From Methanomassiliicoccales archaeon (lineage in GTDB: Archaea; Thermoplasmatota; Thermoplasmata; RBG-16-68-12; SOIM01): a stretch of 64,000 nt of DNA. The stretch spans positions 10,999 through 74,998 of the forward strand of contig SOIM01000059.1 in the NCBI GenBank assembly GCA_004377185.1. The letters run 5' to 3'. The notes below the pieces were generated by a model. It did not search any database. It had not been told where the DNA came from and saw only the letters and a program-made list of their open reading frames with translations. Made by a program: the position numbers and the translations under genes. Of the stretch, positions 10,591 through 34,210 are shown piece by piece. Within the stretch, counting starts at the first letter, position 1; each line of letters opens with the position of its first letter.

Positions 10591-12381
10591 CTATTTATCT
10601 TTTCCATCCGAGAACCAAGAAAGCCCCAAATCCGAAACTGTCTTCTCCGTGGGTATGCCCTCAGAGTCCCATCCCCTCTTCTCGTAATATGTTCGCAGGG
10701 AGAGCTCCATGTCCTCCTCTGAGACGAAAGAGGTGCAACCTTCCGCAACGCCCGATGGCAACGGTTCTGTTCTGAATCTATGGGGAAGACAGTCATCATC
10801 CTTGGTGATGCCTTCGCGGATGTTGTAAAGGCGGATCAACGTCCAAATACGATTGGCGACCTCGGTCTCTTTTTCTGCTGACAGTGAGTTCCCGGTTATC
10901 GCTTGGTAGGCATCTCTCCGCAATTGTCTGTCCATTGTGTCTCTGGCAAAGGTGCAATAAATGAAATTGTCCCTTATCACGTTCCTGTCCTGACCGCCGA
11001 TGAGGACCTCAATAACTTCCAATGCCGATGTGTTTGGGATTTTCTTGGTGGAGTAGAATTCCCTCAGATGAGAACCTCCGATGTCTGCCGTCATGTATGC
11101 CAGACCATGTCCCAGCTTCCCCCTCGGATCCCAGGCGGGTATTTCCAGACCCTTCACATGAACGGCCAACTTGTTCGAATCGTTACCGATCTTCTCAGCG
11201 GCAATCCTCACTCCGTCAGCCAGTATGTCTCCAATGCCCTCCCTGTAGGCAATCTTACGAATGAGTTCCAGCAACTGGTCCCCGTTCCCGAAATCATACT
11301 TCTCCTCCAACAAACCCAGCATCGAGCACTCCATGGCGAAACCTATGACGCCGCCTGTGGAGATCGTGTCCAAGCCCAGTTGATTGCAGAGAGCATTGGC
11401 CTCTATGATTGGTTCCAGATCATCGATTCCGCAATTGGACCCGAGCATGGCAAGTGTCTCGTACTCCGGCCTCTCACGACCGCCTGCGATGTCCCCCTGG
11501 CACTTGATGAGGCAGGGACAGCAACCCACCATATCGACCTCATACTTCTGGTAGAGAGCCTCTCCGGTGATTTTCTCGGTTGCTTCGAACTCGGCCAGTT
11601 GATAGTTCCTCGTGGGAAGCCTATCCTTTGCGCTGGCGTAGTCAACGGCGTTCGACGTTCCGTATTTGTAGAAGGCATATCCCTTCTCCCGCTCTTGCTT
11701 CACGTTATCTGCTATCTGGCGAATGACCTTTTTCAACTTCTTGCCGTCCGCCACCGGCACCTTCCTTGTTCCTTCCACGCACACGGCCTTGAGATTCTTG
11801 GAGCCGAAAACAGCCCCGCTTCCTCCGCGACCCGCGCTTCTTCGGTAGTCGCTCATCAGACAGGCGATTCTCACGAGATTCTCACCTGCTGGACCTGTTG
11901 AGATTACACGAACCTTCTCACCCTCCAGCTTCCTCAATAGAACCTCCATCTCTTTGGTGGTCTTTCCCCACAATTCCGAGGCGTCCTTGATCTGTACTTC
12001 ATCATCCTTGATCGATATGTAGCTCGGGCGTTCCGCCTTCCCTTCTATTATGAGCAAATCGTAACCACATCTCTTCAGGGAATGTCCGAACCATCCTCCG
12101 CAATAGCTGTCGAGGAAAATCCCGGTCAAGGGAGACTTGGCGATAACGGCAAACCGGCCCGTTGAAGGCACGTCCGTTCCTTGATATGGCCCAGTGGACA
12201 GAATCAAGAGGTTGTCAGGAGAGAGCGGTTCCGCTCCCTTCTCCATTTCCTTGCAGAAGTAATATGCACCGATCCCTTTGGCACCCAAATAGGAGGACAG
12301 GAGAGTCTCATCCAAATCTTCCGTGCCAATCTCCCTGTTCGTCAGATTGACTCTCAGAAGCTTTCCCCAGTATCCATACAT
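10591..12381 (-). CDS. aor: tungsten-type aldehyde:ferredoxin oxidoreductase family protein
   Basis: MYGYWGKLLRVNLTNREIG start as in AORs, and AOR_N/AOR_C signatures throughout (GGRG..A..FGSKNLKA, CCPC). Start moved to the ATG at 12381. Confidence 0.9.
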   Translation of the reverse strand: MYGYWGKLLRVNLTNREIGTEDLDETLLSSYLGAKGIGAYYFCKEMEKGAEPLSPDNLLILSTGPYQGTDVPSTGRFAVIAKSPLTGIFLDSYCGGWFGHSLKRCGYDLLIIEGKAERPSYISIKDDEVQIKDASELWGKTTKEMEVLLRKLEGEKVRVISTGPAGENLVRIACLMSDYRRSAGRGGSGAVFGSKNLKAVCVEGTRKVPVADGKKLKKVIRQIADNVKQEREKGYAFYKYGTSNAVDYASAKDRLPTRNYQLAEFEATEKITGEALYQKYEVDMVGCCPCLIKCQGDIAGGRERPEYETLAMLGSNCGIDDLEPIIEANALCNQLGLDTISTGGVIGFAMECSMLGLLEEKYDFGNGDQLLELIRKIAYREGIGDILADGVRIAAEKIGNDSNKLAVHVKGLEIPAWDPRGKLGHGLAYMTADIGGSHLREFYSTKKIPNTSALEVIEVLIGGQDRNVIRDNFIYCTFARDTMDRQLRRDAYQAITGNSLSAEKETEVANRIWTLIRLYNIREGITKDDDCLPHRFRTEPLPSGVAEGCTSFVSEEDMELSLRTYYEKRGWDSEGIPTEKTVSDLGLSWFSDGKDK

Positions 12382-12413
12382 AATACTCGCACATCGGATA
12401 GCTAGATTTCTAT

Positions 12414-12959
12414 ATGACTCTTGCCTTTGCACAAATGTCCAACACACGATTGGGAGAAGCCAGAGGTGAGGAGTTGCCCGAGAAGGAAAACAGCGTAACT
12501 GTCCGAATCATCGGTCATGTGAGGAACGAAGTGCCAAGCGGAAAGGTCGATGATTGGGGGGAGATAGCATCCGAGGTCGTACTAGATGAGGAATACAAAC
12601 CCTCACTGGAGGGCATTGAGCAGTTCTCTCACATAATCGTAATCTTCTGGATGCACCAAGTGGACGAATACAGACCAAAGGTTCGCCCCCAAGGGAGAAC
12701 GGACATTCCCGAACAGGGGACTTTCGCCACCAGAACACCGTTCAGACCCAATCCCATTGGCATCAGTGCCGTGAAACTGCTCTCCCGAAAAGGACCCATC
12801 CTCAAGGTCATCGGTTTGGACTGCTACGACAACACCCCCGTCCTGGACATCAAACCCTACAACGCGGTAGACAGGGGAAGGGTCGAAATCGAGATTCCAG
12901 ATTGGATGAGAAAACTCATGGAAGAGAGAGAAACGGATAACCCAAGATATTTATATTGA
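12414..12959 (+). CDS. TsaA/TrmO-like SAM-dependent tRNA methyltransferase (YaeB family)
   Basis: IGHVRNE..., FSHIIVIFWMH, RPNPIGISAVKLL and TPVLDIKPY are YaeB/TsaA hallmarks. The start is uncertain (ATG at 12414 or 12435). Confidence 0.8.
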   Translation: MTLAFAQMSNTRLGEARGEELPEKENSVTVRIIGHVRNEVPSGKVDDWGEIASEVVLDEEYKPSLEGIEQFSHIIVIFWMHQVDEYRPKVRPQGRTDIPEQGTFATRTPFRPNPIGISAVKLLSRKGPILKVIGLDCYDNTPVLDIKPYNAVDRGRVEIEIPDWMRKLMEERETDNPRYLY

Positions 12960-19452: not shown

Positions 19453-22400
19453 ATGATACGAGGGCCTAGAAAAGTCTACGCAAGTGTGTTAGTGTTCCTG
19501 ATGCTTTTTTCTTCGTTTATCTCGCTAGGTGTAGCAGAGCAAGACACGGGACAGAACGAGATAGAACCTCTGATGGAGAACCCAACAGAACAGCCTTATT
19601 CTGAGGATAACGCGTACCAGGGAGAAGAAACCGCAGATATGGGAAAGGTCTCGCAGTCCTTGTTCCCTAGAATGAACTCCAAAGAGAAGATACCCATAAT
19701 CATCGCAACTAACGACATCTCGGAACTGTCTGCTGCCTTGCAGGGCGTTGATTTCGAAGGAACAATCGGTACCGAGAAGAGCAGCTTTGAAGGAATCTCA
19801 CTGCCGCTACTGAATGTACCCGGTTATGCCATCGAGAGAATCGCCTCCCTTCCATCTACCATATACATAGAAGAATTCGAGACCCCGATAAGGGACTATG
19901 CTCCCTCGTACGAGCCTCTCCGCTCCCGGAACATAATTGCGAACAACCTCAACTCAACGATAAATCACCAGGCGAACCTGGCTTGGGCGGAGGGATACAC
20001 TGGAAAGGACGTCCAGATAGCAGTTCTCGATGACGGCATAGATTTCGCCCACCCGGACCTCATGGAAAAGATGGCGCGGGTGGACTCGATATTCCAGGTG
20101 GAGAACGAGACGGTGGTTGACTCTATTGACTCGGGCCAGACCTTCGCAGCACTCCGCAACTTCGACATCGTGGACGGATCATACATATTCTACAGGAACG
20201 GAAACCCCATGACCCCCTTCACCGAATACTATCTCCACTTGTGGAATGGAACGGTACAGTTCAACCAATCACTCCCACCGGGTACGAACGTCAAGGCGAC
20301 GTACAAATTCTATTCTCCATACTATGGATGGCCCATCAGTTTTGATCCCGGTTCCCTGAGAACACTGATAGATACAAGATACCCAACGGACACATGGTAC
20401 GCGAACACCACATCCGATGACAGGAACGTCACTCATACGATAAAGATCGATGGAAGGTTCGACTTCTGGGATGACGGAAGTGAGCTGGTTGCGACAGATT
20501 CCAATGCGGACATGATCACACGTCCAGGTCAGCCCACCCATGAAGGGAATGACTACAACCTCATTTCGCTATATGTGACTCAAGATGCAGATTTCTGGTA
20601 CTTCGGCTTTGACAGTCTGGCAAATCAAACAACAATGAAATTCGGGCTCTACATAAACACAACGAGTTCTCCCCCATGGGATCAAGGTGGGACATACGAT
20701 CCTGAGAATACCTATGATGATGGGATGGTTAACCTGTCATTGGTTGGATCAATCCCTGAGCATCGACCTGAAGTTGTAGTGTACATCCCGCATCAGGGCG
20801 GAGAGGAGCGCGGGAACTGGAGCAAGAACGACACGATTGAAGATGCAACGGTCTGGATATGGGAAGACGACAGTCCCAATATGTGGAGCGGTTATGGCAT
20901 CAAGAGCATTGGGGGAGACATGAACTACGGGGGATGGGACTACGATGAGCTGAGAGGAGTGGTTGAGTTCAGCATCCCCAAGTCGGTACTGGGCTATCCC
21001 GAGAACATCTCTGTGGAACTGTTCACCACCGGGTTCAACGTGAGTCACGTGCAAGATACCGTGTACACTGACCCCAACATTCCTGTTTTCACCAATCCCG
21101 ATTGGAGCTTCATTCAGACAAACTTATCTGCCTTTGTCATTGTTGGAAAAGATATCGCAAACCAGAAAGGATTCTGGAGGCATACCTACACTAGAGTGGA
21201 CGACACTGTGGGTGGGGTTCCCAACACAAATATGACTTGGCCCTTGAAGTATATCCCAACAGGGACAAGCAAGAGCGGTAAATACTGGTACGGCGACCAT
21301 CCTGAGGAGAATTATCCTTTGACGAGGGTATTGGTCGTTGACGAGAGCGAGGCAGGGGTGTACGACACAGTCTACATGGACTTGGACCATAACAGAGACT
21401 TCCGAAACGACAAGCCGGTGAAGAAGTATGGCGTGTACGATGCTGAGTTGAAATGGCATCCTCCGAATTGGTCGGGTAACGGAACGATGTACGACGATGT
21501 GGGCTACGGGGACTTCTATGATCCCGCAAAGGGCGTGACATCCTTGGATTGGTCTCCGGACGGGACGTTGATTGCCAGCGGCTCTGACGATCACACAATA
21601 GTCATCTGGGAGTTGGGTCCGCCTGTCACCTATCAGAAGCAACTCCACGCACATTATGGAAGAGTGAAATCAATCAGATGGTCTCCCAACGGGACCTGGC
21701 TGGCTGCCGGATACGACGATCGTTCAGGTAATGGAGACTTCACGGTTGCCATTTGGGATGTGTCAAACGGAACAATATTCTACAACCTCACAGGGCACAC
21801 AGAAGGTGTTTGGGGAGTTGATTGGTCACCTACTGGTGACAGACTGGTCTCTGTATCCTTGGACAGCACACTGAAGATATGGGACGCGGTGACCGGTACT
21901 CTAGAGAAGACATACACCAACCACACTGGTCCGATATACGATGTCCACTGGGCTTCTGATGGAAGAATTGCGACAGCATCTCAGGACATGACGGCAAAGA
22001 TCTGGGATGCAAATGCAGCTCCGAGCGACCCAGTTGTCGCAGAATTCGTAGACCCGTCTTTCCCAGAACCTTTGACGGCAGTTTCCATTAATCCCACACG
22101 AGACTGGATCACATACGGATCTTCAAGGGGGTATATTACCATAGTCAACATATCCACAAGCGCCAGCGACCGGTTTCTGCCTCATAACGAGTTCCATAGG
22201 ATCTGGACTTTGAAATGGGCTCCTGATGGGGTCAGGTTACTTAGCACATCAGAGTCTTTCCCAACTTATACAAACGATCCTACCCTCGTAGTTCGGGATT
22301 GGTATGGCCTTGGCCTCGGGGAGTGTGGTGTTAAGAAGGTTACCGGTTCCCATAATGGAGAGTCTGTTCGAGCGGGAAGCTGGTCAACCAATGACACAAC

Positions 22401-25400
22401 ACTCCTTACGGGGGGAGACGACCAGTACGTCCAGATGTGGAGTGCCGGAAGACCGCTGATAAATATAGCTCCCAATGGCGAGGGATTCAAAGGTCACGAG
22501 GAAGGTTCCTTGGACTATACAAGATGGAACACAGGAGACGGTCTGCCTGATGTCTCGGGTGGCATGGTCTACTACATCGCACAGCATAGGTTCAATGATG
22601 TCTTGAACGAACTGCATGAAGTCCCCATCCCATACTCGGAGACGTACGTAGAAAGACTCGGTGGTGATGTCCAGAATTTCATAGCCGAGAACGGAACACT
22701 GGTCGCGATAACGGGCAATCTGGACATGGACATGAACCACGGTACATTGGTTGCATCCTCAATATCAGGACTTGGAAGGACCGAGTACTTCGATCCTTCG
22801 ATGGATGTTCCGACCGTCGGACACGTCATGGGATTCGCTCCGGACGTGAAGCTGGTTTCCGTGGCGAACATCTACTACAGCAACTACTACGATGGATGGT
22901 ACTTCGCCGTTGAAGGTTATGATGGAATACGCGACACAGGGGACGAACCTCAAATCGTATCCAACAGCTTCGGCTTCGCGAACATTGATTACGCTGGTTT
23001 TGATTTCAAGTCCAGATTCCTCGACTGGCTCGTGAACGAATATGCAGATAAGAAACTGACCTTCACTTTCTCGGCAGGAAACAGCGGCTATGGATACGGA
23101 ACGGTCTCCACACCGGCATCCTCTCCTGGAGTCATAACTGTGGGAGCTTCTTCCGACTTCTTCTACAGGCACCTCTCAGGCCTTGAAGATGGCGCCCATC
23201 CAACATACGGGGATGTGGCAGTAGAGTCCTCAAGAGGCCCGACCATGATGGGAGAGCCTGACCCTGACATACTGGCGAACGGAAGGATGGCCTTTGGAAG
23301 TACGGCCCTGAACCAAGTGACCTATCGTCCCTACGACGGATCGCAGGCGACGAACCTCTGGGCAGGAACGAGCCTCTCATCCCCTGGAGTGGCCGCAATG
23401 CTGGCCCTCGCGTTCCAGGCCTACAAAGAAAATCACGGTTACTATCCTAATGCCACTACTGCGAAGTCAATGGTGATGAGCTCGGGAGACGACATGAACT
23501 ACGACATCCTATCTCAAGGGGCAGGAATGCTCAATGCCAAGAGACTTACGGACATCGCGTCCGATACAGACGGGGTGCAGGTCTATCCCAACAACTGGGT
23601 ACCAGGAAACTACAAGGGAACCAGATACCAATCGTTCGCCAAACTGATGTATCCAGGTCAGCAGGATGACAACACAGAAACCTTCACAATAAGCAACCAC
23701 AACCCGAGCACTGCAAAGAACGTTGACATCTACGATGCTGTCTATCAAAAGGTGGACGAGGTTACCTATTCGTTCACAACTGTCGCGGAGGACAGGGCTG
23801 AATGGCAGTACATCCTAGCAACAGGCCGTTTCGCAATCAATGCAAGTCAGCCCGGAGTGTATGAGCCTGGTGTATATGACTTGGACCAGAACAAGCTGGC
23901 GGACATAAACCTCACCAATTGGCTGAACGCGGACCTGCTGCGGATAACCATGTACTTGAAGTGGACGGACTTGGATGACAACGCGGATGGGAATCCGGAC
24001 TACAGCTACTTCCTGGACGTATACGACTGGACCAAGAACCCGATCGACATGGAGGAAGAACCACATCCAGGAGACTACCGTGACATGAATAGAATGTTGA
24101 TTTCCTATCCTGATGCAAACATATTTGAAGGGAGGGTCCACAACCCAGCGCAGAGAACGCATGACGGATTGGTCATAGGGACCAGGCCGGGTATCCAAGC
24201 TGGCCGAATGGGAGCCGTCGGTGCACGCATCATGGTCTCTCTGGAGTTCTTCGAGAAGAGAGATTGGAACTGGCTCACCTTGGACAAGAACTCTGTGACT
24301 CTGCAACTGATAGGCGCCGGTGACAGCGACACGTTCACCGCCACAGTTGATGTTCCGGCCAACACCTCAGTTGGATCATACCAGGGAGGCATTTACCTCA
24401 GGACAGAGGGTGGCTATGAGAACGAGACGACTGTCGTGGAAAGCACGAGGGGCATGCGCTTCATTCGCCTGGAGAGATATCACGCGAAGTCCGCAACAGT
24501 ATATCTCAATGGTGGGCTGCAAACGGAAGGTGTCGACTATGTCCTCCATGCAGATAACGGGATCGTGGAATTCGTCAGCCCGTTGAACAACTTCGATCAG
24601 GTGATAGTCAATTACACCTACTATGATGTTACGACAATACCAGTACTTGTAAACGTACCTTCGGACGGAATAGAGTTCAGCTTTGGAGGAGTTGAGGCCG
24701 GTCAGGATGACCTGTATTCCAACAGAGTCAACGGTGGGTTTGGAAACGGGGCGAAATCAGGAGACTGGCGGTACTACTTCGTGGATGTGCCTGACCAAGG
24801 GATGTTCGATTCCGAGACGGGGGCCAAGTTCCTGGTGGATGTCTGGTGGGACATGCCCAGAACGGACATAGATGTCCTTGCCTATGGCCCAGGAGGTGCA
24901 AGAGGTGGCTTGGATCCCAAAGTGGTTCTCTCTCCTACTCTATACGGACCTTATGAGCTCTTCAGGTCAAATGGTGGAAGCGAGGAGACTGCCAACTTCT
25001 TCACGACCACAGGCGAGAACGAAGAGATAGTCGCACCCAAGATATCTGGTGGTCTCAACGTCATTGCGCTTCATCAAGTGAGGCTGAATGGAACGATACA
25101 CTGGGAGAATGTGTCAGGAAATGTCGCATCCATGTCCGTTGTGCCAGAGGAGATCAAGATCATCACGAACCAACTCGAAGGTAGGACGGACCTTCGCATG
25201 CATTCTACCATTCCCTGGTTCGGAATAGGTAGCCAATCGGCAGGTCCTTCGCCACCGGTCCGAGAAATCAACGTACCCATAAAACAGGACAATGTCGAGG
25301 GAGACAGCTTCATTAAACTTCTGGCACAGGGCGGCTACACCAAGGTCGTGAACGTCCTGCCGACCGCTTTGATCTTTGCGGTCAACATAACAAGTCTGGA

Positions 25401-27435
25401 GGAATGGACGGACAAACCATGTAAGGATTTGGACTTGGGCATCTTCTTGGATGGAAAGGGTCCCGACAACACACCAGATGGAGAAGCTACCGAAGACGAG
25501 TTCGTGGCCTATGACGCCGATCCGGATGCCGAGGAGGGCGTAAGGCTCATCAAACCTCCTGTTTTTGACGACCCGGACACGCCTCACATCAACGAGCAGG
25601 AAGTGGGTGTTCCCTACATCATCAAAGTGCTCGGATACACCGTTCCAGGCGGTCAAGGTACCTTCAACATCGATGTGACCCTTGTTCAGGGAGCTGGATT
25701 CAAGGTCGAGGGGCTGAAAGAGGAAGACGATGAATGGGGACCGTTAGAGCTCTCAAGGATAAACCTCACTTGGGACCTACCTGGAAACACTACAGACGGC
25801 AAGATGCTGGGAGCCTTGTACCTAGGACCATACAGGTCACCCTTCACCGTTCTGATACCCATCGAACTGATAGTGGACAGGGTGAAACCAGAGGTGACCG
25901 ATTTCGCTCTGAGGACGCCCGGCAAGGAAATAGATGTGGAAACAAACAGAACGACAAATCATAAACAGCCTGACATATCCTGCACTCTAAGGGACACAGA
26001 TAGGGGAGAACTGGACTGGAGAAGTGTCAGGGTATTCTTTGATGGAGAGAACGTAACCAGCATTGCTCTAATCGATATAGCATTCACGGAAAGCGGAGGG
26101 CAACAGGGCTATTTCGAAGGGAAGGTCATCTTCACACCACCGAACAGGCTTGCCGAAGGCTCTCACTCATTCGAGGTCTACGCTTCGGACATCGCTGGAA
26201 ACGAGAACTACGGCAAACTGGATTTCTTGATCGACAGCCAGGCCCCCGATCTCATTCTTGAGGGAGGCTTGGTGGAAGCCACTACAAGCCCTGTCGCCAC
26301 TGTGAGCGGTTGGACTGAACCTGACAAGACTGTGATCATCCGAGAGAAGACAGTGATATCGGATGGGGAAGGATATTTCGAGGCCGACCTGGACTTGGTT
26401 CCTGGCCAGAACCCAATCGATGTCGTTGTTGTGGACTTCTTCGGTATGACGAGCGGAGAGGAAATGGTCCGATCCAACTCCCGTGGCTTGCAGAAGGTGA
26501 TCATCTATGACACCATCTCACCCACACTGACCAGTCTGAGATTTGACAAATCTTCGCCAACCAGTGCGGACATCGCCTATCTCAGTGGAAAGGTTGAGGA
26601 CCTGATAGCCGAAGAAACACCCTATGACCCATCTGCGGTCCAGGTGACTGTGAACGGGGAGTCTGTGACTGTGGAGAGCGATGGCGTTTTCGGTCTGTTG
26701 GTCTCGCTGCAGGAAGGTATCAATACCCATTTCGTTGAAGCGACAGACATGGCAGGGAACTCGGTGAGCATCTACAGGAACATCACAAAGGACACGGTGG
26801 CACCTGCCCTTGACCTGGAAGATGTTCCATCGAGAACGGAGGAGGGAAGGGTTGTCATCCGAGGAACGGCTGAACCTGGAAGTCTCGTGACAGTCAACGG
26901 CAAGTTCGTCCATCTGGACGGTGCTACAGGCAGCTTCGAGGAAGAAATCGCGCTTGGCAGAGGTGCCAATCTAATCATAGTCGAAGCGGTGGATTCGGCC
27001 GGAAATCTCAGGGCCAGCAGGTTGGTCATTGAGATGAGTGTTCCGGACATCCTGCCGTACGCGCTCATAGCTGTGGGAATAATCGTGGGTCTTGTTGTGG
27101 GCTTGATTGTCGGCATGACTCTCCGCCCGAAAGAGGAGGAAGAGATGCTCGAAGAAGAGGAAATCTTCGAGGAGGAGGAAGAGATTCCGGAGGAAGTGCT
27201 AGAGGAGGAAGAGGAGATCTCAGAAGAGGTTCTCGAGGAGGCACCTGAAGAAGAAGTAGCTCCTGTTCCTGAGGAAGAAGTTGGCGAGCCCGAAGCAGAA
27301 CCGGAAGAACCCGAGGCCCCAGTGGTGGATATCGACAAGGAAGAAAGACTGGCAAGGCTTGAGAAAGCGTACAAAGAGGGCAAGCTCACCAAAGAGCTGT
27401 ACGAACTCAACATGAAGAAGATCCTCGGGAAGTAG
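19453..27435 (+). CDS. giant (2660 aa) membrane-anchored S8 subtilisin-like serine protease with an inserted WD40 propeller, Ig-like domains, a C-terminal TM helix and an acidic/SHOCT-like cytoplasmic tail
   Basis: Signal peptide MIRGPRKVYASVLVFLMLFSSFISLGVA. Catalytic triad motifs: Asp in VQIAVLDDGIDFAHPDL (D193, nt 20029), His in NHGTLVASSISG (H1096, nt 22738), Ser in AGTSLSSPGVAAMLAL (S1307, nt 23371). The oxyanion region is SNSFGF. The TM helix ILPYALIAVGIIVGLVVGLIVGM is at about 27049-27123. Confidence 0.85.
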   Translation: MIRGPRKVYASVLVFLMLFSSFISLGVAEQDTGQNEIEPLMENPTEQPYSEDNAYQGEETADMGKVSQSLFPRMNSKEKIPIIIATNDISELSAALQGVDFEGTIGTEKSSFEGISLPLLNVPGYAIERIASLPSTIYIEEFETPIRDYAPSYEPLRSRNIIANNLNSTINHQANLAWAEGYTGKDVQIAVLDDGIDFAHPDLMEKMARVDSIFQVENETVVDSIDSGQTFAALRNFDIVDGSYIFYRNGNPMTPFTEYYLHLWNGTVQFNQSLPPGTNVKATYKFYSPYYGWPISFDPGSLRTLIDTRYPTDTWYANTTSDDRNVTHTIKIDGRFDFWDDGSELVATDSNADMITRPGQPTHEGNDYNLISLYVTQDADFWYFGFDSLANQTTMKFGLYINTTSSPPWDQGGTYDPENTYDDGMVNLSLVGSIPEHRPEVVVYIPHQGGEERGNWSKNDTIEDATVWIWEDDSPNMWSGYGIKSIGGDMNYGGWDYDELRGVVEFSIPKSVLGYPENISVELFTTGFNVSHVQDTVYTDPNIPVFTNPDWSFIQTNLSAFVIVGKDIANQKGFWRHTYTRVDDTVGGVPNTNMTWPLKYIPTGTSKSGKYWYGDHPEENYPLTRVLVVDESEAGVYDTVYMDLDHNRDFRNDKPVKKYGVYDAELKWHPPNWSGNGTMYDDVGYGDFYDPAKGVTSLDWSPDGTLIASGSDDHTIVIWELGPPVTYQKQLHAHYGRVKSIRWSPNGTWLAAGYDDRSGNGDFTVAIWDVSNGTIFYNLTGHTEGVWGVDWSPTGDRLVSVSLDSTLKIWDAVTGTLEKTYTNHTGPIYDVHWASDGRIATASQDMTAKIWDANAAPSDPVVAEFVDPSFPEPLTAVSINPTRDWITYGSSRGYITIVNISTSASDRFLPHNEFHRIWTLKWAPDGVRLLSTSESFPTYTNDPTLVVRDWYGLGLGECGVKKVTGSHNGESVRAGSWSTNDTTLLTGGDDQYVQMWSAGRPLINIAPNGEGFKGHEEGSLDYTRWNTGDGLPDVSGGMVYYIAQHRFNDVLNELHEVPIPYSETYVERLGGDVQNFIAENGTLVAITGNLDMDMNHGTLVASSISGLGRTEYFDPSMDVPTVGHVMGFAPDVKLVSVANIYYSNYYDGWYFAVEGYDGIRDTGDEPQIVSNSFGFANIDYAGFDFKSRFLDWLVNEYADKKLTFTFSAGNSGYGYGTVSTPASSPGVITVGASSDFFYRHLSGLEDGAHPTYGDVAVESSRGPTMMGEPDPDILANGRMAFGSTALNQVTYRPYDGSQATNLWAGTSLSSPGVAAMLALAFQAYKENHGYYPNATTAKSMVMSSGDDMNYDILSQGAGMLNAKRLTDIASDTDGVQVYPNNWVPGNYKGTRYQSFAKLMYPGQQDDNTETFTISNHNPSTAKNVDIYDAVYQKVDEVTYSFTTVAEDRAEWQYILATGRFAINASQPGVYEPGVYDLDQNKLADINLTNWLNADLLRITMYLKWTDLDDNADGNPDYSYFLDVYDWTKNPIDMEEEPHPGDYRDMNRMLISYPDANIFEGRVHNPAQRTHDGLVIGTRPGIQAGRMGAVGARIMVSLEFFEKRDWNWLTLDKNSVTLQLIGAGDSDTFTATVDVPANTSVGSYQGGIYLRTEGGYENETTVVESTRGMRFIRLERYHAKSATVYLNGGLQTEGVDYVLHADNGIVEFVSPLNNFDQVIVNYTYYDVTTIPVLVNVPSDGIEFSFGGVEAGQDDLYSNRVNGGFGNGAKSGDWRYYFVDVPDQGMFDSETGAKFLVDVWWDMPRTDIDVLAYGPGGARGGLDPKVVLSPTLYGPYELFRSNGGSEETANFFTTTGENEEIVAPKISGGLNVIALHQVRLNGTIHWENVSGNVASMSVVPEEIKIITNQLEGRTDLRMHSTIPWFGIGSQSAGPSPPVREINVPIKQDNVEGDSFIKLLAQGGYTKVVNVLPTALIFAVNITSLEEWTDKPCKDLDLGIFLDGKGPDNTPDGEATEDEFVAYDADPDAEEGVRLIKPPVFDDPDTPHINEQEVGVPYIIKVLGYTVPGGQGTFNIDVTLVQGAGFKVEGLKEEDDEWGPLELSRINLTWDLPGNTTDGKMLGALYLGPYRSPFTVLIPIELIVDRVKPEVTDFALRTPGKEIDVETNRTTNHKQPDISCTLRDTDRGELDWRSVRVFFDGENVTSIALIDIAFTESGGQQGYFEGKVIFTPPNRLAEGSHSFEVYASDIAGNENYGKLDFLIDSQAPDLILEGGLVEATTSPVATVSGWTEPDKTVIIREKTVISDGEGYFEADLDLVPGQNPIDVVVVDFFGMTSGEEMVRSNSRGLQKVIIYDTISPTLTSLRFDKSSPTSADIAYLSGKVEDLIAEETPYDPSAVQVTVNGESVTVESDGVFGLLVSLQEGINTHFVEATDMAGNSVSIYRNITKDTVAPALDLEDVPSRTEEGRVVIRGTAEPGSLVTVNGKFVHLDGATGSFEEEIALGRGANLIIVEAVDSAGNLRASRLVIEMSVPDILPYALIAVGIIVGLVVGLIVGMTLRPKEEEEMLEEEEIFEEEEEIPEEVLEEEEEISEEVLEEAPEEEVAPVPEEEVGEPEAEPEEPEAPVVDIDKEERLARLEKAYKEGKLTKELYELNMKKILGK
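21531..22450 (+). other. WD40 repeat region (about 7 repeats) embedded in the subtilase, between catalytic Asp and His
   Basis: Repeats such as LDWSPDGTLIASGSDDHTIVIWE, GHTEGVWGVDWSPTGDRLVSVSLDSTLKIWD, HTGPIYDVHWASDGRIATASQDMTAKIWD and LLTGGDDQYVQMWS. Confidence 0.8.
27124..27432 (+). other. cytoplasmic tail of the subtilase: poly-Glu low-complexity segment plus a SHOCT-like terminal helix pair
   Basis: RPKEEEEMLEEEEIFEEEEEIPEEVLEEEEEISEEVLEEAPEEE... is followed by KEERLARLEKAYKEGKLTKELYELNMKKILGK. This matches the SHOCT pattern L..L..L...G.IT.EEY...K..LL. Confidence 0.5.
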
Positions 27436-28270: not shown

Positions 28271-31108
28271 TTACACAACTATGCAGACTATTACAACCCA
28301 GTGTCCGCCATCGTCATCCTCAACTGTCAGTGCAACATAGTAGGTCCCGCTCCCAGTGAAAGCATGGTTCATACTCTCACTTATCTCCACAGGATATGTC
28401 GCATTCGCATTCAAATAGAAGCTTGTTGTGTTCGTTCCGTCCCCGAAGTCCCAATAGAAGGTCAGATCATCCGCACCAGGATCGAACGCAGTCGCCTGAA
28501 ATGTCAGGCCATGTATCAAAACTGCAGCGGTCAAATCCACTTCCCAGACATATGACTCAGGATGCTGAACATTGAATGTGTGATGTATCCAGAGCTCCTG
28601 TCCGTCGCTGAATGTGAGTATTATCCAACATGGATTGGCTCCGTTTGGTTTGCCGTTTATCGGATCCTCTTCAGGCGTGTAGCGGACTATCGCTGAGTAA
28701 CTCTTCGAAATATCTACCTGCAGATGCGTTAAGTCCCGCATTTGCTCATTGGGGCTTCCTGGGTAGCGAATGAGAGTCCCGTTTACTATGGGGATTCCAT
28801 CTTCGTACATCTCGATGGTCACATCGTGCCACTTCTCGCCTGCTATTCTGAGCGAAGCGTCAACCTCCACAGGGAGCACTTCCAGGGTCACGGTTGGAGG
28901 AACGTTCTTTACCAGTACATGGGCTGTATCTACTCCAACCCCGCCATCGTCATCCGTGACTCTCAGGGCCACATATCCATCAAAGTCGTCAATGTAAGTG
29001 TGAGAAACAGTCTGTCCAGTAGCATCAATATCGAAGGTCGACCCATCATAGTCGAAATCCCATTCAAAGGTGTGGGTGTCATTCGCTCCCGAATCATATG
29101 CACTGCCGTTGAAGATGAATATGGATACCTCGAATCCTTCCTTGTCCTCTCCCGCTTTCGCTATCGGAGGTACGTTCACTATCGTGACTGTAGTGACATC
29201 CAGGTCCCATCCGCCATCGTCATCCGTGACTCTCAGAGCTACGTTCCCAGAGTAATCATCGTGCCATGTCTTTGGATATGGGTTTCCTGTGGCGTCGGGT
29301 GTGAATGTGATTCCGTCGTAGTCGAAATCCCATTCGTAGGTGTGTGTATCCAGAGGTCCGGGATCGGTGTGGTCGCCCTTGAACTGGATTGGAATTCCTT
29401 CGAAACCGTGGTAGTGTCCGTTTGCGGTTGCGTCGGGTGGAACATTGTGCACTGTCACGTGAGTGACGTCCAGGTCCCAGCCTCCGTCGTCGTCGATGAC
29501 CTTGAATGCGACGTTCCAATCGAAGTCGTCAAGCCATTGATGAGTTGGGCTCTGTTGGGTTGAATCGACATTGAACGTGATGCCGTCAAAGTCGAAATCC
29601 CATTGGAAGATGTGTGTGTCCAAGATTCCAGAATCGGTGAAGGTTCCGGTGAATTGGACCGTGTGGGGCTCGTCCCCTTCGTACGGGCCGTCGGCGTTTG
29701 CGGTAGGAGCCACGTTGAGGACGGTTGCGATGCAGGTGTCGGTGTCCACTTGTCCTGAATCGTCTATGACCTTCAAAGTGACTACATAAACACCATTGTC
29801 ATAATATACATGGCTCGAAGTTGGCCCCGTTGCCTCATTGTCGTTTGTGTAATTGCCATCACTGTCAGAATCTACCAAGGAGTCGAAATCCCATGAATAG
29901 GATAGTATGGTTCCGTCGGGATCAAATGACCCAGTTCCATTGAATTCGGTCGAAGAACCCTCGGGGCCTTCTGTATCTACAGCGGCAACAGCTACTGGAG
30001 GCTTGTTTGCAGTCAAGTTGGTCTTTGTCGCATATTTGAGGACGTGATAGGCTTGAAAGCCCGCATAGGCCACATGGGGAATACCCTCATCATCTAGAGC
30101 CAGTGATGTGCCCCAGTAGATGTAGCTGACCGAATCGATTCTCTCAACATTCCATTTCGCTCCAGTCCAGTTCGCATACTTGAGTTCGCGGTTGAATCTG
30201 TCAAGGTACGTCACATGTGGATGCCCATTCTGGTCAAGAGCTATTGATGTGTGCCAGCCAACCTCGCCAGCAGAATCGATGGTTTCGAAGTTCCAGATGT
30301 TTCCTGTGAAGTTCGCATACTTCAGGCTGAAGCTGGACTCGCTGAAGTAGCTTATATGAGGAATGTCGAGCTCGTCGAGAGCAATAGATGTATATTTGCC
30401 GACATCCCCCGAAGAGTCGACAGTCTGGATGCTCCATTTGGTCCCAGTCCACTGTGCGTATTTGAGACTCTCACCAGTGGCATTGTGGTAACTGATGTGG
30501 GCATGGTTGTTCCTGTCCACACCTATTGAGGAGTAGTAGCCGACTTTACCACTTGAGTCGACTGTGTAGTTAACCCATTTGGTACCTGTCCACTTAGCAT
30601 ATTTGAGATCGTGGTTGGCATTGTCGTAGTAGCTGATGTGAGGGCGATCTTCAGTGTCAAGCGCCATGGATGTGAACCAGCCAACACTGCCCACAGAGTC
30701 GACAGTGTCGTTAATCCAGCCAGTTCCTGTCCACTTCGCGTATTTCAGATCATCGTGATTCCCATCGAAATAGCTGATGTGCGGATAATCGTTCTTGTCT
30801 AATGAGAGCGATATCATTCCCCCAATACTACCAGTATCATCAACTGTAGTCTTGGTCCAATTCGTACCCGTCCAATTTGCGTACTTTAGAACATCCTTAG
30901 TGTCATCCAGATATGCAATGCAGGGATAGCCATGTTTGTCCAAAGCTATTGAGGCAAATTTCCCGACATCGCCATTGGAGTCAACGACCACTATATTCCA
31001 ATCACTTCCTCCAAACGGAGAAGGGTCCAAACCTAGTTGAGGAAAAGCACTTGCTGACAGGTTAACTGCAACTAATAGAGAGAACATATTCTTGGCGAAT
31101 CCTTTCAT
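28271..31108 (-). CDS. secreted protein: 7-bladed beta-propeller (seven 47-aa repeats) followed by about five PKD domains
   Basis: I prefer the start at the ATG at 31108 (GGAGG SD upstream; signal peptide MKGFAKNMFSLLVAVNLSASA). Seven tandem repeats fit the pattern W...TVDS.G.VG...S+ALD....PHISY......LKYA.WTG. PKD signatures (WDFDFDGITF..., WDFGDGT...) fill the C-terminal half. Confidence 0.8.
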   Translation of the reverse strand: MKGFAKNMFSLLVAVNLSASAFPQLGLDPSPFGGSDWNIVVVDSNGDVGKFASIALDKHGYPCIAYLDDTKDVLKYANWTGTNWTKTTVDDTGSIGGMISLSLDKNDYPHISYFDGNHDDLKYAKWTGTGWINDTVDSVGSVGWFTSMALDTEDRPHISYYDNANHDLKYAKWTGTKWVNYTVDSSGKVGYYSSIGVDRNNHAHISYHNATGESLKYAQWTGTKWSIQTVDSSGDVGKYTSIALDELDIPHISYFSESSFSLKYANFTGNIWNFETIDSAGEVGWHTSIALDQNGHPHVTYLDRFNRELKYANWTGAKWNVERIDSVSYIYWGTSLALDDEGIPHVAYAGFQAYHVLKYATKTNLTANKPPVAVAAVDTEGPEGSSTEFNGTGSFDPDGTILSYSWDFDSLVDSDSDGNYTNDNEATGPTSSHVYYDNGVYVVTLKVIDDSGQVDTDTCIATVLNVAPTANADGPYEGDEPHTVQFTGTFTDSGILDTHIFQWDFDFDGITFNVDSTQQSPTHQWLDDFDWNVAFKVIDDDGGWDLDVTHVTVHNVPPDATANGHYHGFEGIPIQFKGDHTDPGPLDTHTYEWDFDYDGITFTPDATGNPYPKTWHDDYSGNVALRVTDDDGGWDLDVTTVTIVNVPPIAKAGEDKEGFEVSIFIFNGSAYDSGANDTHTFEWDFDYDGSTFDIDATGQTVSHTYIDDFDGYVALRVTDDDGGVGVDTAHVLVKNVPPTVTLEVLPVEVDASLRIAGEKWHDVTIEMYEDGIPIVNGTLIRYPGSPNEQMRDLTHLQVDISKSYSAIVRYTPEEDPINGKPNGANPCWIILTFSDGQELWIHHTFNVQHPESYVWEVDLTAAVLIHGLTFQATAFDPGADDLTFYWDFGDGTNTTSFYLNANATYPVEISESMNHAFTGSGTYYVALTVEDDDGGHWVVIVCIVV

Positions 31109-31700
31109 CAGACTCCTCCCCTCAATCCTTGTGTAGCTACCCTCGCAACAAACTCGCCTAGATTCAGGTTCGAGATGTATGGATGGACAATATATGCTTG
31201 CTCGTATTTGTTCTTTCTTCTTGAGGAGTTGAGCAACCAACACGCATGCTACATGAGTCTTCTTGTCCCCTGACAGCAAGATGCTCTTTAGTTCTCCCAA
31301 CTTGAGAAGGAACCTCACAAAGGGATTCCCAAGATAACCACATGAAGATATGCTAAAGGGTCGAGATCCGCAAAGTTCCCTTGCCAAGATATTCGAACTC
31401 AACCTCACCCCGACCTCAAATCCCGCCATTTCTGCGAGCTACGATGGGATGGCGACGATGAGGCTGTTTCCCACCTTTCGGATTTTGCGAGTGAGAGTCA
31501 TGCTTCCACTTGTGAATCTTCAAGGACATGGAGATGGATATGCTTTTCGACTGACAAATAGGTGTTATTTTGGGTTCTGAACCTATATTGGGTTAAATCC
31601 CGTGGGTCCACTTCGCTCCAAGACCAGGTTCACTGACCGAGGTGTTGCTGTGACGGGAACTGGCACATTGGGAAGAGGTCTGTAACCACACCACAATAGA

Positions 31701-31990: not shown

Positions 31991-32458
31991 ATGCGAACTG
32001 AGGATGACCTGTTCTACTTTCTTCAGTGTGCAACAGTCGCTTCGCCCAGGGACGACGATTGGCTGTTCAGGGTGAAGGAAGAGAAGTATGCGTTGGAGAA
32101 GTTCAGCGAGTATCTGAGATTCCTGGAAGGGAACGAGTGGTTCACCCTCGGTCCCATAGATGAGAGAGCCACGCGCTGGAAGGGCGTGGTAAATGGGTGG
32201 GGGTATGAATTCGACATGGAGATGGTCCTGAAGGACGCGTATCCGACCACACCACCTGCAGTCCGAATACCTGAACTGATGAAGTACACCGACAGAAAGC
32301 TGGATGACAGCGTTCTCGGGCTGAGAATATGCGACATGCACATGGAACAGAACTTCTGGTGGGATGAACATTCGGGCATCGCCCTGTACCTGAAGAGGGA
32401 GGTCTCCTATTGGGTCCAGAGCGTGATTGAGTCCATGAAGGAGAAGGGCTGGATATGA
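31991..32458 (+). CDS. UFC1-like E2 (Ufm1-conjugating enzyme homologue)
   Basis: SPRDDDWLFRVKEEKYALEKF, RWKG..., YEFDMEMVLKDAYPTTPPAVRIPEL and GLRICDMHMEQNFWW. Remembered human UFC1 has [52 protein letters not shown] and GGKICLTDHFKPLW. The putative catalytic Cys114 is the codon TGC at 32330-32332. Confidence 0.8.
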   Translation: MRTEDDLFYFLQCATVASPRDDDWLFRVKEEKYALEKFSEYLRFLEGNEWFTLGPIDERATRWKGVVNGWGYEFDMEMVLKDAYPTTPPAVRIPELMKYTDRKLDDSVLGLRICDMHMEQNFWWDEHSGIALYLKREVSYWVQSVIESMKEKGWI

Positions 32459-33207
32459 CGGAAAGGTATGCTCGCCTCGGGCAATTCGAGTTCGCAGATT
32501 TCTCCAAGCTCAGGGACAAGAAGGCGATGGTCGTAGGCGTAGGAGGACTGGGAGCTCTCACAGCGGAGATCATGGCCAGAGTCGGGATAGGAGAGCTTGT
32601 GTTGATGGATTATGACAAACTGGAAGAGGCGAATCTGAATCGGTTGATATACAATGTTGACCAGGTCGGCATGCCCAAGGTGGACGCCCTCAAAGAGCAC
32701 TTGTTCAAGGCCAATCCAGATGTGAAGATCACAACCTATCCGTATGACATAACGGACGGAGAAGGTTACGACGCGTTCCTCAACGAGATAGCGAAATGCG
32801 ACATCATCTTTGGGTGTGTGGATACCTTTCAGGTAAGATTGTTCATCAACTCCCAGGCGGTCAAATCAAGGAAGACACTCGTCGATGGAGGAGCGTCGAA
32901 TGATGGCATCAACGGAAGCGTTCATGTCGTAATACCCGGGGAGACGGCATGCTACCGATGCAACAGACCTCTGGCAAGAGAGGAGAAAGCACAGACGCAC
33001 AGGAGCGATGGTTCGGGCCTTTGTCATTTTGCCTCCCTCCCCACGACAATGGCGATAATCTCCAGTCTGCAGTGCCAGGAAGGTCTGAAGTACCTCCTGG
33101 GATTCGGAGAGGTGGCCTCATATCTGATGTACTACGGTCTGGAAGGAAAGATGGAAAGGTACGATTGGAAAAGGGACCCGGACTGCCCCGTTTGCGGGAA
33201 GGTTTAG
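32455..33207 (+). CDS. UBA5-like E1 (ThiF/MoeB-fold adenylating enzyme, minimal 250-aa form)
   Basis: VGVGGLGALTAEIMARVGIGELVLMDYDKLEEANLNRLIY, CVDTFQVRLFIN, VIPGETACYRC, GLCHFASLPTTMAIISS and DCPVC. Remembered UBA5 has [63 protein letters not shown] and GVCAASLPTTMGVVAG. The putative catalytic Cys190 is the codon at 33022-33024. Two CxxC pairs form a Zn site. There is an ATGA overlap with the E2 gene. Confidence 0.85.
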   Translation: MTERYARLGQFEFADFSKLRDKKAMVVGVGGLGALTAEIMARVGIGELVLMDYDKLEEANLNRLIYNVDQVGMPKVDALKEHLFKANPDVKITTYPYDITDGEGYDAFLNEIAKCDIIFGCVDTFQVRLFINSQAVKSRKTLVDGGASNDGINGSVHVVIPGETACYRCNRPLAREEKAQTHRSDGSGLCHFASLPTTMAIISSLQCQEGLKYLLGFGEVASYLMYYGLEGKMERYDWKRDPDCPVCGKV

Positions 33208-33208
33208 C

Positions 33209-34210
33209 ATGAATGATTCCATTCTGATTCGTGAAGGCGCGATCGACTCCCTGCTGAGCCATGCTCTCAGGTCGGCAAAGGCTCACGGCAAAGAGGTCAT
33301 AGGCTGGCTGATGGGGTTCTTTCAGAAGGAAGGGGTATGCGTATCCGAGTCCGTTCCATGCACCAAATACAGATTCCAATCCCGGTTCGGGGCGGAAGCG
33401 GATCCGACCCAGGAGGCGGAAATCGCCAGTTTGTATCCAAGGAATGTTGGGATTGTGGGATTGTATCACTCTCATCCTTTTGCAATGAGATTGGAAGGGG
33501 GCCATTTCCGACGGATATCCAGCTTGGACGACATCTTTCACAGCAGTACGGACGACAGCATGCTCAGGGCCAGGTCCAGCAGAAGGAAGAACTACCTCTC
33601 CATCGTCACGAACGGGATCGACTACTCGTGCTATGTCATGAAGAAGGGCTCAAAAGAGATTGAACCCGCTTTGGTCGGAGAGATCCCCTACAAGAATTCC
33701 CTTCAATCCTACCACAGCAACTTCAGCATTCACTTGGAGGAGGAAATGGAGAACGTTGAGCTCAAGGACGCGATAAGGAAGATTAGCTGGGAGCTGATGG
33801 ACCGCGCCAAGAAAGACCTCAAGCAAGAGGGTCTGTCAATAGAGAAGGGGACGTTCAACAGGCATCGTTTCAGATCCAGACAAAAGAGTACGGAAATCAC
33901 TCCAGAGAACATGTTGAGTTTCGACAAAGGGAACGATTCCATCAAAGGCGAGGCACACATATCCCTCTCACCGGTCGTGTACACTGCCTTGGAGGACGAG
34001 AAGGAAATCAACATAGCCATGAAGGAAGAGATCTTGGATAACATCGCCTATCTCTTGTGGAAGCTCTCCCTTTCCAAGACGCCCGCAATGCGGAGGAGAT
34101 GGAGCAGGGTCGAAATCCACCTGGGCAACGTTGAGATTGACGAATCCGAGTCCCTTCCCAAGAAAAGGTTCCAAACACCGGAAAGAGAGATCACAATCAA
34201 ACGCTCATAG
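33209..34210 (+). CDS. JAB/MPN+ (JAMM) metalloprotease with a C-terminal extension of about 180 aa
   Basis: Glu in KEVIGWLMG, and HSHP at 33467-33478 (GLYHSHPF), followed by SSLDD / HSSTDD as candidate S..D elements. It starts 1 nt after the E1 stop. Confidence 0.8.
   Translation: MNDSILIREGAIDSLLSHALRSAKAHGKEVIGWLMGFFQKEGVCVSESVPCTKYRFQSRFGAEADPTQEAEIASLYPRNVGIVGLYHSHPFAMRLEGGHFRRISSLDDIFHSSTDDSMLRARSSRRKNYLSIVTNGIDYSCYVMKKGSKEIEPALVGEIPYKNSLQSYHSNFSIHLEEEMENVELKDAIRKISWELMDRAKKDLKQEGLSIEKGTFNRHRFRSRQKSTEITPENMLSFDKGNDSIKGEAHISLSPVVYTALEDEKEINIAMKEEILDNIAYLLWKLSLSKTPAMRRRWSRVEIHLGNVEIDESESLPKKRFQTPEREITIKRS

Follow-up and report, generated by a model that had tools for sequence, protein, structure and literature searches.

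Insertions between the catalytic residues of subtilases (peptidase family S8) are already known from tripeptidyl-peptidase II (TPPII), from the pyrolysin group and from subtilases with a PA domain. In TPPII, an insert of about 200 residues lies between the catalytic Asp and His, after an HPDL-like turn and before strand beta2, and mediates assembly of the enzyme. The PA-domain subtilases, which include plant SBT3, cucumisin, C5a peptidase and lactocepin, carry a folded domain within the S8 domain near the substrate cleft. Prolyl oligopeptidase (family S9) has a seven-bladed propeller nested in its catalytic domain, where it restricts access to the active site. The large inserts of pyrolysin itself are about 150 residues or less; such inserts are also treated by Gao et al. 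(2017), cited in PMC12838322. Members of the pyrolysin group are defined by a catalytic domain with large insertions, by a long C-terminal extension or by both (PMC9549277, PMC12838322). Prokaryotic WD40 proteins have been surveyed and linked mainly to kinases and to caspase-like or STAND contexts, with no mention of S8 peptidases (PMC5587647). Here we describe a gene in a 64,000-nucleotide stretch of a Methanomassiliicoccales archaeon (contig SOIM01000059.1, assembly GCA_004377185.1, forward-strand positions 10,999 to 74,998; the whole stretch is termed the window, and coordinates refer to it) in which one S8 domain has a complete WD40 propeller and two further modules placed between its catalytic Asp and His. 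It is this combination that appears to be new. The preliminary description of the locus knew of no account of such an arrangement; a limited literature search for an S8 peptidase with a nested WD40 domain found none either, which is not proof of absence.

The gene occupies nucleotides (nt) 19453-27435 on the + strand, as do all of its features given below, and consists of a single uninterrupted open reading frame (ORF) encoding a 2660-residue pre-pro-subtilase with a C-terminal membrane anchor. Full-length homologues include P0001 (74% identity) and P0002 (47% identity). Mapping of motifs on the ORF placed the catalytic residues exactly where the preliminary description had put them. D193 (DDG; nt 20029-20031) lies in VLDDGIDFAHPDL, which begins at residue 191 (nt 20023), H1096 (HGT; nt 22738-22740) lies in NHGTLVASS, from residue 1095, and S1307 (GTS.S.P; nt 23371-23373) lies in GTSLSSPGVAA, from residue 1305. 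N1210, within SAGNSG (AGN; nt 23080-23082), is the Asn of the oxyanion hole. The order Asp, His, Ser, together with the S8 family motifs and the oxyanion Asn, identifies the protein as a member of S8 (clan SB). D193 and H1096 are 903 positions apart, which leaves 902 residues between them.

The Peptidase_S8 profile of Pfam matched the protein in two separate stretches (E=5.1e-29; 101.9 bits, cut-off 21.8). Profile positions 1-42 fell on residues 184-220 and positions 52-283 on residues 1092-1354, and the same portions of the profile were recovered when residues 150-260 and residues 1001-1420 were scanned alone. In silico splicing of residues 150-222 to residues 1085-1420 produced a contiguous match to positions 1-283 of the 288 in the profile, and the spliced pieces scored 119.5 bits, compared with 91.2 bits before splicing. 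The domain search thus returned both Peptidase_S8 and WD40 above their Pfam cut-offs, and the split S8 match with its 902-residue gap bears out the earlier proposal that a single S8 domain has its catalytic Asp and His about 900 residues apart.

These matches also bear on a simpler arrangement, in which the WD40 region merely precedes a complete, ordinary S8 domain and the VLDDGID segment around D193 is a vestige or belongs to a prodomain. Although packing of the Asp segment rests on models without coordinates, which is the only point in favor of that arrangement, no D-x-G motif is present between residues 683 and 1160, and a second Asp motif near His1096 was found neither by pattern nor by profile; the observation that, by the preliminary description, would have set the WD40 region ahead of a normal S8 domain was therefore not made. 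Positions 1-42 of the S8 profile occur only at residues 184-220, the C-terminal piece begins at position 52, and splicing yields a contiguous match with a higher score. In addition, D193 is invariant in 38 of 38 aligned family members, and relatives that lack the WD40 domain contain the same Asp segment and the same pieces of a shared insert in the same order. In the subtilisin fold, the Asp-bearing strand beta1 forms the middle of the central parallel sheet, and an S8 domain deprived of it would miss that strand. We regard this arrangement as very improbable. The catalytic domain is one S8 domain, divided in sequence by a nested, conserved, multi-module insert.

An AlphaFold2 (AF2) model of residues 170-1369 was obtained from a 38-sequence alignment and read as secondary structure, predicted local distance difference test (pLDDT) and predicted template-modeling score (pTM); mean pLDDT was 79.3 and pTM was 0.75. 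The N-terminal S8 piece (residues 171-211; nt 19963-20085), which spans S8 profile positions 1-42, contains a helix (residues 174-179), strand beta1 (residues 188-192) and D193, with pLDDT of 83-97 both in this model and in the second model described below. Since the Asp segment is modeled as a beta strand, it requires partner strands. After the insert, the model shows, once each, strand beta2 (residues 1083-1087), the His helix (residues 1096-1105) and three further strand-helix units; N1210 follows a strand at residues 1203-1207, and the Ser helix comprises residues 1306-1328. Because Foldseek searches with the full model were swamped by WD40 matches, an artificial construct with the WD40 region deleted was modeled (pLDDT 74, pTM 0.68). 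This model matched KP-43 (E 7e-14), SubHal, site-1 protease (S1P), Tk-subtilisin, Vpr, Tk-SP and subtilisin BPN' (target TM-score about 0.65); these whole-model matches, given without alignment ranges, support the S8 fold. The C-terminal S8 piece (residues 1091-1360; nt 22723-23532) contains H1096, N1210 and S1307 and spans S8 profile positions 52-283, and the Foldseek matches to KP-43, SubHal, S1P and Tk-subtilisin, with E-values down to 7e-14, agree with its assignment.

The best PDB matches to the catalytic core, by both sequence and structure, were the oxidatively stable proteases KP-43 and SubHal together with S1P, Vpr and Tk-SP, of which SubHal and Tk-SP are, we assume, members of the pyrolysin group. 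None of the five has a propeller or folded domain between Asp and His, in contrast to the protein described here. KP-43 (OSP), S1P and Vpr (HMS) represent pyrolysin subgroups named in PMC9549277. An insertion of 900 residues and a C-terminal extension of 1300 residues agree with the definition of the group. The protein thus fits a pyrolysin-like assignment, a placement made by definition and nearest matches and not by phylogeny. The STABLE protease of Staphylothermus is likewise an archaeal cell-surface subtilase (PMC9549277); the surface location of the protein in the window is predicted from its sequence.

The likeness to TPPII (MEROPS S08.090; PDB 3lxu) pointed out in the preliminary description held for the position of the insert and for its size class, and did not extend to homology of the insert or of the remaining protein. 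The insertion site is the same, and the insert of relatives without a WD40 domain (185-247 residues) is of the TPPII size class; the insert studied here exceeds that of TPPII about fourfold in length and includes the WD40 region. TPPII is a cytosolic exopeptidase that forms giant homo-oligomers and lacks a signal peptide, whereas the window protein has a predicted signal peptide and membrane anchor. Homology to TPPII was rejected after phmmer and profile searches against PDB sequences. The queries were the spliced core, a natural relative without WD40 (P0023) and a profile built from 17 relatives over the Asp-His region; their matches were confined to Asp/His motifs or the His-Ser core, and none reached TPPII within the insert. 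With the base-insert profile, PDB chains matched at the Asp and His motifs only, and 3lxu did not appear in the best 60 of the 142 matches. The match to TPPII itself was weak and confined to the His-Ser core (E 1e-7 to 8e-4). No TPPII-specific Pfam family was detected in the window protein at E<=0.1, and 3lxu was absent from the top 50 Foldseek matches of the WD40-deleted model.

Two further groups of peptidases share single aspects of the architecture. PA-domain subtilases also have a whole nested domain; theirs is about 120 residues long, lies between His and Ser and contains no propeller. Prolyl oligopeptidase and tricorn likewise combine a serine peptidase with a seven-bladed propeller, a likeness that is a functional analogy only. 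Prolyl oligopeptidase has an alpha/beta-hydrolase fold, a propeller that is not of the WD40 type and all triad residues on one side of it, whereas the window protein has the S8 fold. Pfam and Foldseek gave no indication of an S9 alpha/beta-hydrolase or tricorn catalytic fold.

The WD40 insertion with its linkers spans residues 661-1018 (nt 21433-22506), and its seven blades, delineated by Pfam, AF2 and Foldseek, span residues 693-1000 (nt 21529-22452). Pfam WD40 (PF00400) matched with five scored repeats over residues ~690-1000 (E=4.5e-39; 131.6 bits, cut-off 27). In the AF2 model, this region forms 28 strands (residues 695-997) arranged as seven four-stranded blades, with pLDDT mostly 85-97, and so coincides with the WD40 region that had been placed at nt 21531-22450 (residues 693-1000). 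Foldseek comparison with seven-bladed WD40 structures (the designer protein WRAP-T, PkwA, WDR5 and RACK1) gave target-normalized TM-scores of 0.8-0.9, the best being 0.88-0.90; as modeled, the domain is a closed propeller of four-stranded blades. It resembles the propellers of prokaryotic WD40 proteins such as PkwA of Thermomonospora (PDB 5yzv; target TM-scores 0.87-0.90 at about 25% identity), and in sequence its blades are nearest to prokaryotic WD40 proteins that are long and repetitive, with 35-45% identity across some 160 residues. In contrast to the surveyed prokaryotic proteins, the WD40 domain here is predicted to be extracellular and glycosylated. The propeller is present in 18 of 18 orthologues, at 40% mean identity.

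Comparison with more distant relatives indicated that the insert is layered. Among 5.8 billion proteins, 8 relatives contained both S8 and WD40 domains, while more than 100, of 950-2200 residues, contained S8 without WD40. P0001-P0006 and P0008 showed 51-100% query coverage and 35-74% identity; the best segment of P0010 covered only 31%. Relatives without WD40 belong mostly to Chloroflexota/Anaerolineae, with some in Methanotrichaceae, Methanosarcinales and other lineages, and their Asp-His spacing is 185-247 residues, compared with 781-903 in WD40-bearing proteins. BLAST alignments with these relatives consist of colinear pieces at residues 172-211 (the Asp segment), 288-327, ~600-701 and 1029 onward. 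Thus, the whole family holds a conserved base insert of about 200 residues, with the consensus SPYYGWPIAFDP...WY.DT...GTSKSG.YH.G.HPD...VLVVDE..GVYDTVYVDLD.D.DF.DEKP..KGDE..YRD..GDG.AD.SGGM.YFIADG...P.P.SDW...NG.LVAF.

The window protein consists, in this region, of the base insert and three additions: module A, module B and the WD40 domain with its linkers. Base-insert piece 1 (residues 288-327; nt 20314-20433; SPYYGWPI.FDP...WY.DT) aligns directly after the Asp segment of relatives without WD40, and its P, Y, G and W residues are near-invariant family-wide. Piece 2 (residues 600-660; nt 21250-21432; GTSKSG.Y..G.HP...VLVVDE..GVYDTVY.DLD...DF.NDKP) aligns with all relatives without WD40 and, at 77% identity, is the most conserved stretch. 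Piece 3 (residues 1019-1090; nt 22507-22722; ...GDG..D.SGG..Y.IA...P.P.S...NG.LVA; 60% identity) aligns just before the His of these relatives. The propeller occupies a loop within the base insert: residues 661-1018 lie between ...DKPVKKYG and SLDYTRWNTGDG, a point at which KP..KGDE..YRD..GDG is contiguous in the base family. The preliminary description had divided the insert into a WD40 region and about 490 unassigned residues; the WD40 region stands, and the rest resolves into about 170 residues of base insert (residues 288-327, 600-660 and 1019-1090) and two lineage-specific modules.

Module B (residues 328-599; nt 20434-21249) is beta-rich, occurs in all 18 orthologues at a mean identity of 57%, and replaces a short, variable stretch of the base family. 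It had no Pfam match and no PDB match at E<=10, and a profile search of the 5.8 billion proteins retrieved only fragments of the same protease family. Its motifs I.IDG..DFW and LYV..D...WYFGF may, as a guess, be reminiscent of CBM9/DOMON-type sandwiches. A separate 402-residue homologue from a Candidatus Thermoplasmatota metagenome-assembled genome (MAG), P0272, ends within module B and has ISQGTD instead of VLDDGID, perhaps as a family member that has been truncated or has degenerated.

Module A (residues 212-287; nt 20086-20313) is a beta module of about 75 residues, modeled with six strands at pLDDT 75-92. It is confined to a subclade, being present in the query, L001-L003, P0001 and P0003 and absent from the other orthologues. 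A paralogous copy with 34% identity is found at residues 1656-1724 (nt 24418-24624), a stretch missing from relatives without WD40. Because its copies sit as insertions relative to the relatives, module A seems, from sequence comparison, to spread into loops of the protease family. P0003 has a further insertion of about 74 residues right after the catalytic Ser (A2 alignment columns 1443-1516), which by eye only resembles a third copy; BLAST of module A against P0003 found the canonical-site copy only and detected no similarity in the post-Ser insertion. Module A also gave a weak Pfam match to phage DUF2460 (E 0.034) that is probably due to chance.

The loop that follows the HPDL turn behind Asp and leads to strand beta2 is thus already filled, family-wide, by the conserved base module of about 200 residues. 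In the Thermoplasmata clade, this base module was a landing pad for more insertions: module B entered one variable loop and the propeller another, and the ~75-residue beta module was added in a subclade.

The same nested architecture was found when related genomes were searched, as had been suggested, with one genome per GTDB species. The full layout was present in 16 species-level genomes, all uncultured Thermoplasmata, Methanomassiliicoccales or 'Methanobacteriota' MAGs with one long ORF per locus, and in several metagenome proteins. The closest orthologue is on CP070767.1 (86% identity in the best segment), and the Asp-His spacing was 747-903 residues in the 14 genome loci in which both motifs were located. 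Of 1.84 billion representatives clustered at 50% identity, only about 8 have the nested Asp-His region; all others in the top 150 are repetitive WD40 proteins. D193, H1096, N1210 and S1307 were invariant in 19 of 19 aligned nested sequences. Mean identity to the query over the 18 orthologues was 0.61 for the Asp segment, 0.60 for base piece 1, 0.57 for module B, 0.77 for base piece 2, 0.40 for WD40, 0.60 for base piece 3 and 0.63 for the His-Ser core. A metagenome-type assembly can produce very long ORFs that are chimeric, and the gene could in principle be a chimera, a frameshift product or a fusion artefact of this contig. Yet the same uninterrupted single-ORF layout recurs across these independent genomes and metagenome proteins at 41-86% identity, and GC (guanine plus cytosine) content is even along nt 19453-27435, so that an artefact is scarcely credible. 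The Pfam E-values and the conservation of the layout over many independent assemblies rule out chance and assembly error. Thus, the nested architecture is real, under purifying selection, rare and confined to one lineage.

A paralogous lineage provides a natural comparison. Three Thermoplasmata MAGs encode P0010 (L063), L064 and L065 (71% and 77% identity, respectively, in the best segment), and at least two MAGs (EA_19, CR_Sed_300A_bin.90) carry a member of this lineage together with the canonical gene. The WD40 domain of the paralogues is inside a loop of module B, with none at the canonical site. Asp replaces their catalytic Ser in three of three sequences (within GTD or GSD) as well as the oxyanion Asn in both sequences that cover the position; Asp and His are kept in P0010 and L064, and L065 is truncated before both. 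This lineage looks like a conserved pseudo-protease. Identity between the paralogue and canonical WD40 domains is about 25%, which is consistent with separate acquisition of the two. A WD40-bearing paralogue without catalytic Ser indicates that the architecture can be maintained for a non-catalytic purpose.

The remaining parts of the protein predict a location at the cell surface. A signal peptide was read from the sequence at residues 1-28 (nt 19453-19536), with a basic n-region, a hydrophobic stretch at residues 10-28 and an inferred cleavage site in ...GVA|EQ. Downstream of the catalytic domain, beta domains found family-wide occupy residues ~1361-2140 (nt 23533-25872); BLAST pieces at residues 1029-1662 and 1719-2140 are common to relatives without WD40 and are separated by the second copy of module A. 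Ig-like stalk repeats follow at residues ~2221-2518 (nt 26113-27006; Pfam Big_13, 5.6e-12, and Glucodextran_B, 3.4e-24; NCBIfam Ca_tandemer, 5.7e-11, below its curated cut-off). The transmembrane anchor (residues 2537-2557; nt 27061-27123) is the only long hydrophobic stretch besides the signal peptide. It precedes an extremely acidic, Glu-rich, predicted cytoplasmic tail (residues 2558-2660; nt 27124-27432) with EEEE runs and repeated E/P/V units, which ends in a short, Lys-rich, basic, helix-like segment (KEERLARLEKAYKEGKLTKELYELNMKKILGK). N-x-S/T sequons were enriched in the ectodomain (38 observed, 19.7 expected; z=4.5), including the WD40 domain (6 versus 2.4 expected) and module B (9 versus 2.8); there were none in the tail and no excess in cytosolic neighbours. 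Together, the signal peptide, C-terminal anchor and sequon excess predict a glycosylated, surface-tethered ectoenzyme, in line with the extracellular, membrane-tethered protease envisaged earlier.

Collectively, these features suggest that the gene encodes a surface-anchored, pyrolysin-like S8 subtilase of an uncultured Thermoplasmata archaeon that is probably catalytically active. The invariance of the four catalytic residues and the 63% identity of the His-Ser core argue for selection for catalysis. The protein would be exported via its signal peptide, held outside the membrane by the C-terminal helix and Ig-like stalk, and N-glycosylated, and it may degrade environmental proteins and peptides by endoproteolysis for a peptide-fermenting cell. 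In canonical WD40 topology, the chain would enter at strand A and leave after strand D. As these two connections are on the top face of the propeller, the ligand-binding face is expected to point toward the protease body. The propeller could then dock or select substrates or partner proteins beside the cleft; gating, oligomerization and lattice formation are alternatives. Several observations weigh against this account. The AF2 evidence stops at secondary structure and confidence, short of Asp-segment packing, triad geometry and the placement of the propeller with respect to the cleft; confidence is low for module B (pLDDT ~35-80, and below 50 for residues 528-598); the paralogue keeps the scaffold and WD40 domain despite loss of Ser and the oxyanion Asn; and the housekeeping genes around the locus give no functional link.

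The gated or substrate-selecting architecture suggested in the preliminary description is conjectural. The placement of the propeller is also compatible with a gate that caps the cleft and restricts entry to short peptides and unfolded chains, by analogy with prolyl oligopeptidase and tricorn, in which case the cell's own surface proteins would be spared by the tethered protease. The propeller sits in a loop adjoining the catalytic His helix and is kept in every orthologue, both chain connections would lie on its top face, as judged from WD40 topology, and a pTM of 0.75 over the whole model points to an arrangement that is fixed and not floppy. However, the 32-residue N-terminal linker (residues 661-692) could permit distance from the cleft. 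In addition, the pseudo-protease paralogue keeps a WD40 domain with nothing to gate and tolerates it in a different loop; selection of the propeller without catalysis favors a binding or scaffolding role over pure gating. We therefore consider a gate possible but unlikely. Equally tentative, and in our view doubtful, is the broader proposal that the top face of the propeller lies over or beside the cleft as a gate or substrate receptor, making the protein a convergent S8 counterpart, at work outside an archaeal cell, of the propeller-gated proteases and the paralogue a dead receptor or decoy.

The paralogue bears, too, on whether proteolysis might be secondary, the protein acting mainly as a non-catalytic scaffold (surface coat, adhesin or lattice) in which the WD40 domain and modules A and B make protein contacts, as the insert of TPPII does in assembly. 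Conservation of the scaffold and WD40 domain with Ser-to-Asp and Asn-to-Asp replacements in three genomes would agree with such a role, as would the several other giant surface proteins encoded in the window and the lack of a cell wall in some Thermoplasmata. In the lineage of the window protein itself, however, the four catalytic residues are invariant across 40-86% sequence divergence, and few parts are as well conserved as the His-Ser core. A mainly structural role thus appears less likely still than a gate, and a catalytically active subtilase, in which the propeller may recognize substrates or partners, is the reading we prefer.

Although subtilases rank with the most thoroughly studied enzymes, a complete propeller and two more folded modules between Asp and His show how much their fold tolerates, and the recurrent landing-pad loop to which they point could serve engineering. 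The pair of active and inactive paralogues constitutes a natural experiment on the role of the scaffold beyond catalysis. If the propeller controls access or recognizes substrates, propeller-assisted proteolysis would have been invented independently on another catalytic fold. In that case, archaea would also make use of a G-beta-type WD40 domain outside the cell, which would be relevant to the way in which Thermoplasmata with little or no wall digest protein from the environment and keep their own surface unharmed.

The genes flanking the locus are housekeeping genes (CysRS, S6e, aIF2-gamma, Pelota and aRF1), together with a cation-efflux protein and other surface proteins, and no linked transporter or partner gene was evident among them in the window. 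Elsewhere in the window, an aldehyde:ferredoxin oxidoreductase is encoded at nt 10591-12447 on the - strand (AFOR_N, E 1e-76; AFOR_C, E 1e-113); this enzyme fits amino acid and peptide fermentation and is consistent with a nutritional role of the surface protease. Genes for giant predicted surface proteins are unusually numerous in the window. Four more giant ORFs of 1052-2054 residues, at nt 28271-31429 (-), 35615-39148 (+), 53339-59503 (+) and 59500-62898 (-), carry PKD, CarboxypepD_reg, CBM96/Big_9 and BNR/sortilin-like domains. Finally, three adjacent ORFs at nt 31991-34210 (+) encode a UFC1-like E2 (PF08694, 1.6e-14), a ThiF-type E1 (1e-51) and a JAB/MPN protein (2.6e-5). These ORFs look like an archaeal ubiquitin/UFM1-like conjugation cassette, and a UFC1-type E2 in Thermoplasmata may merit separate attention.

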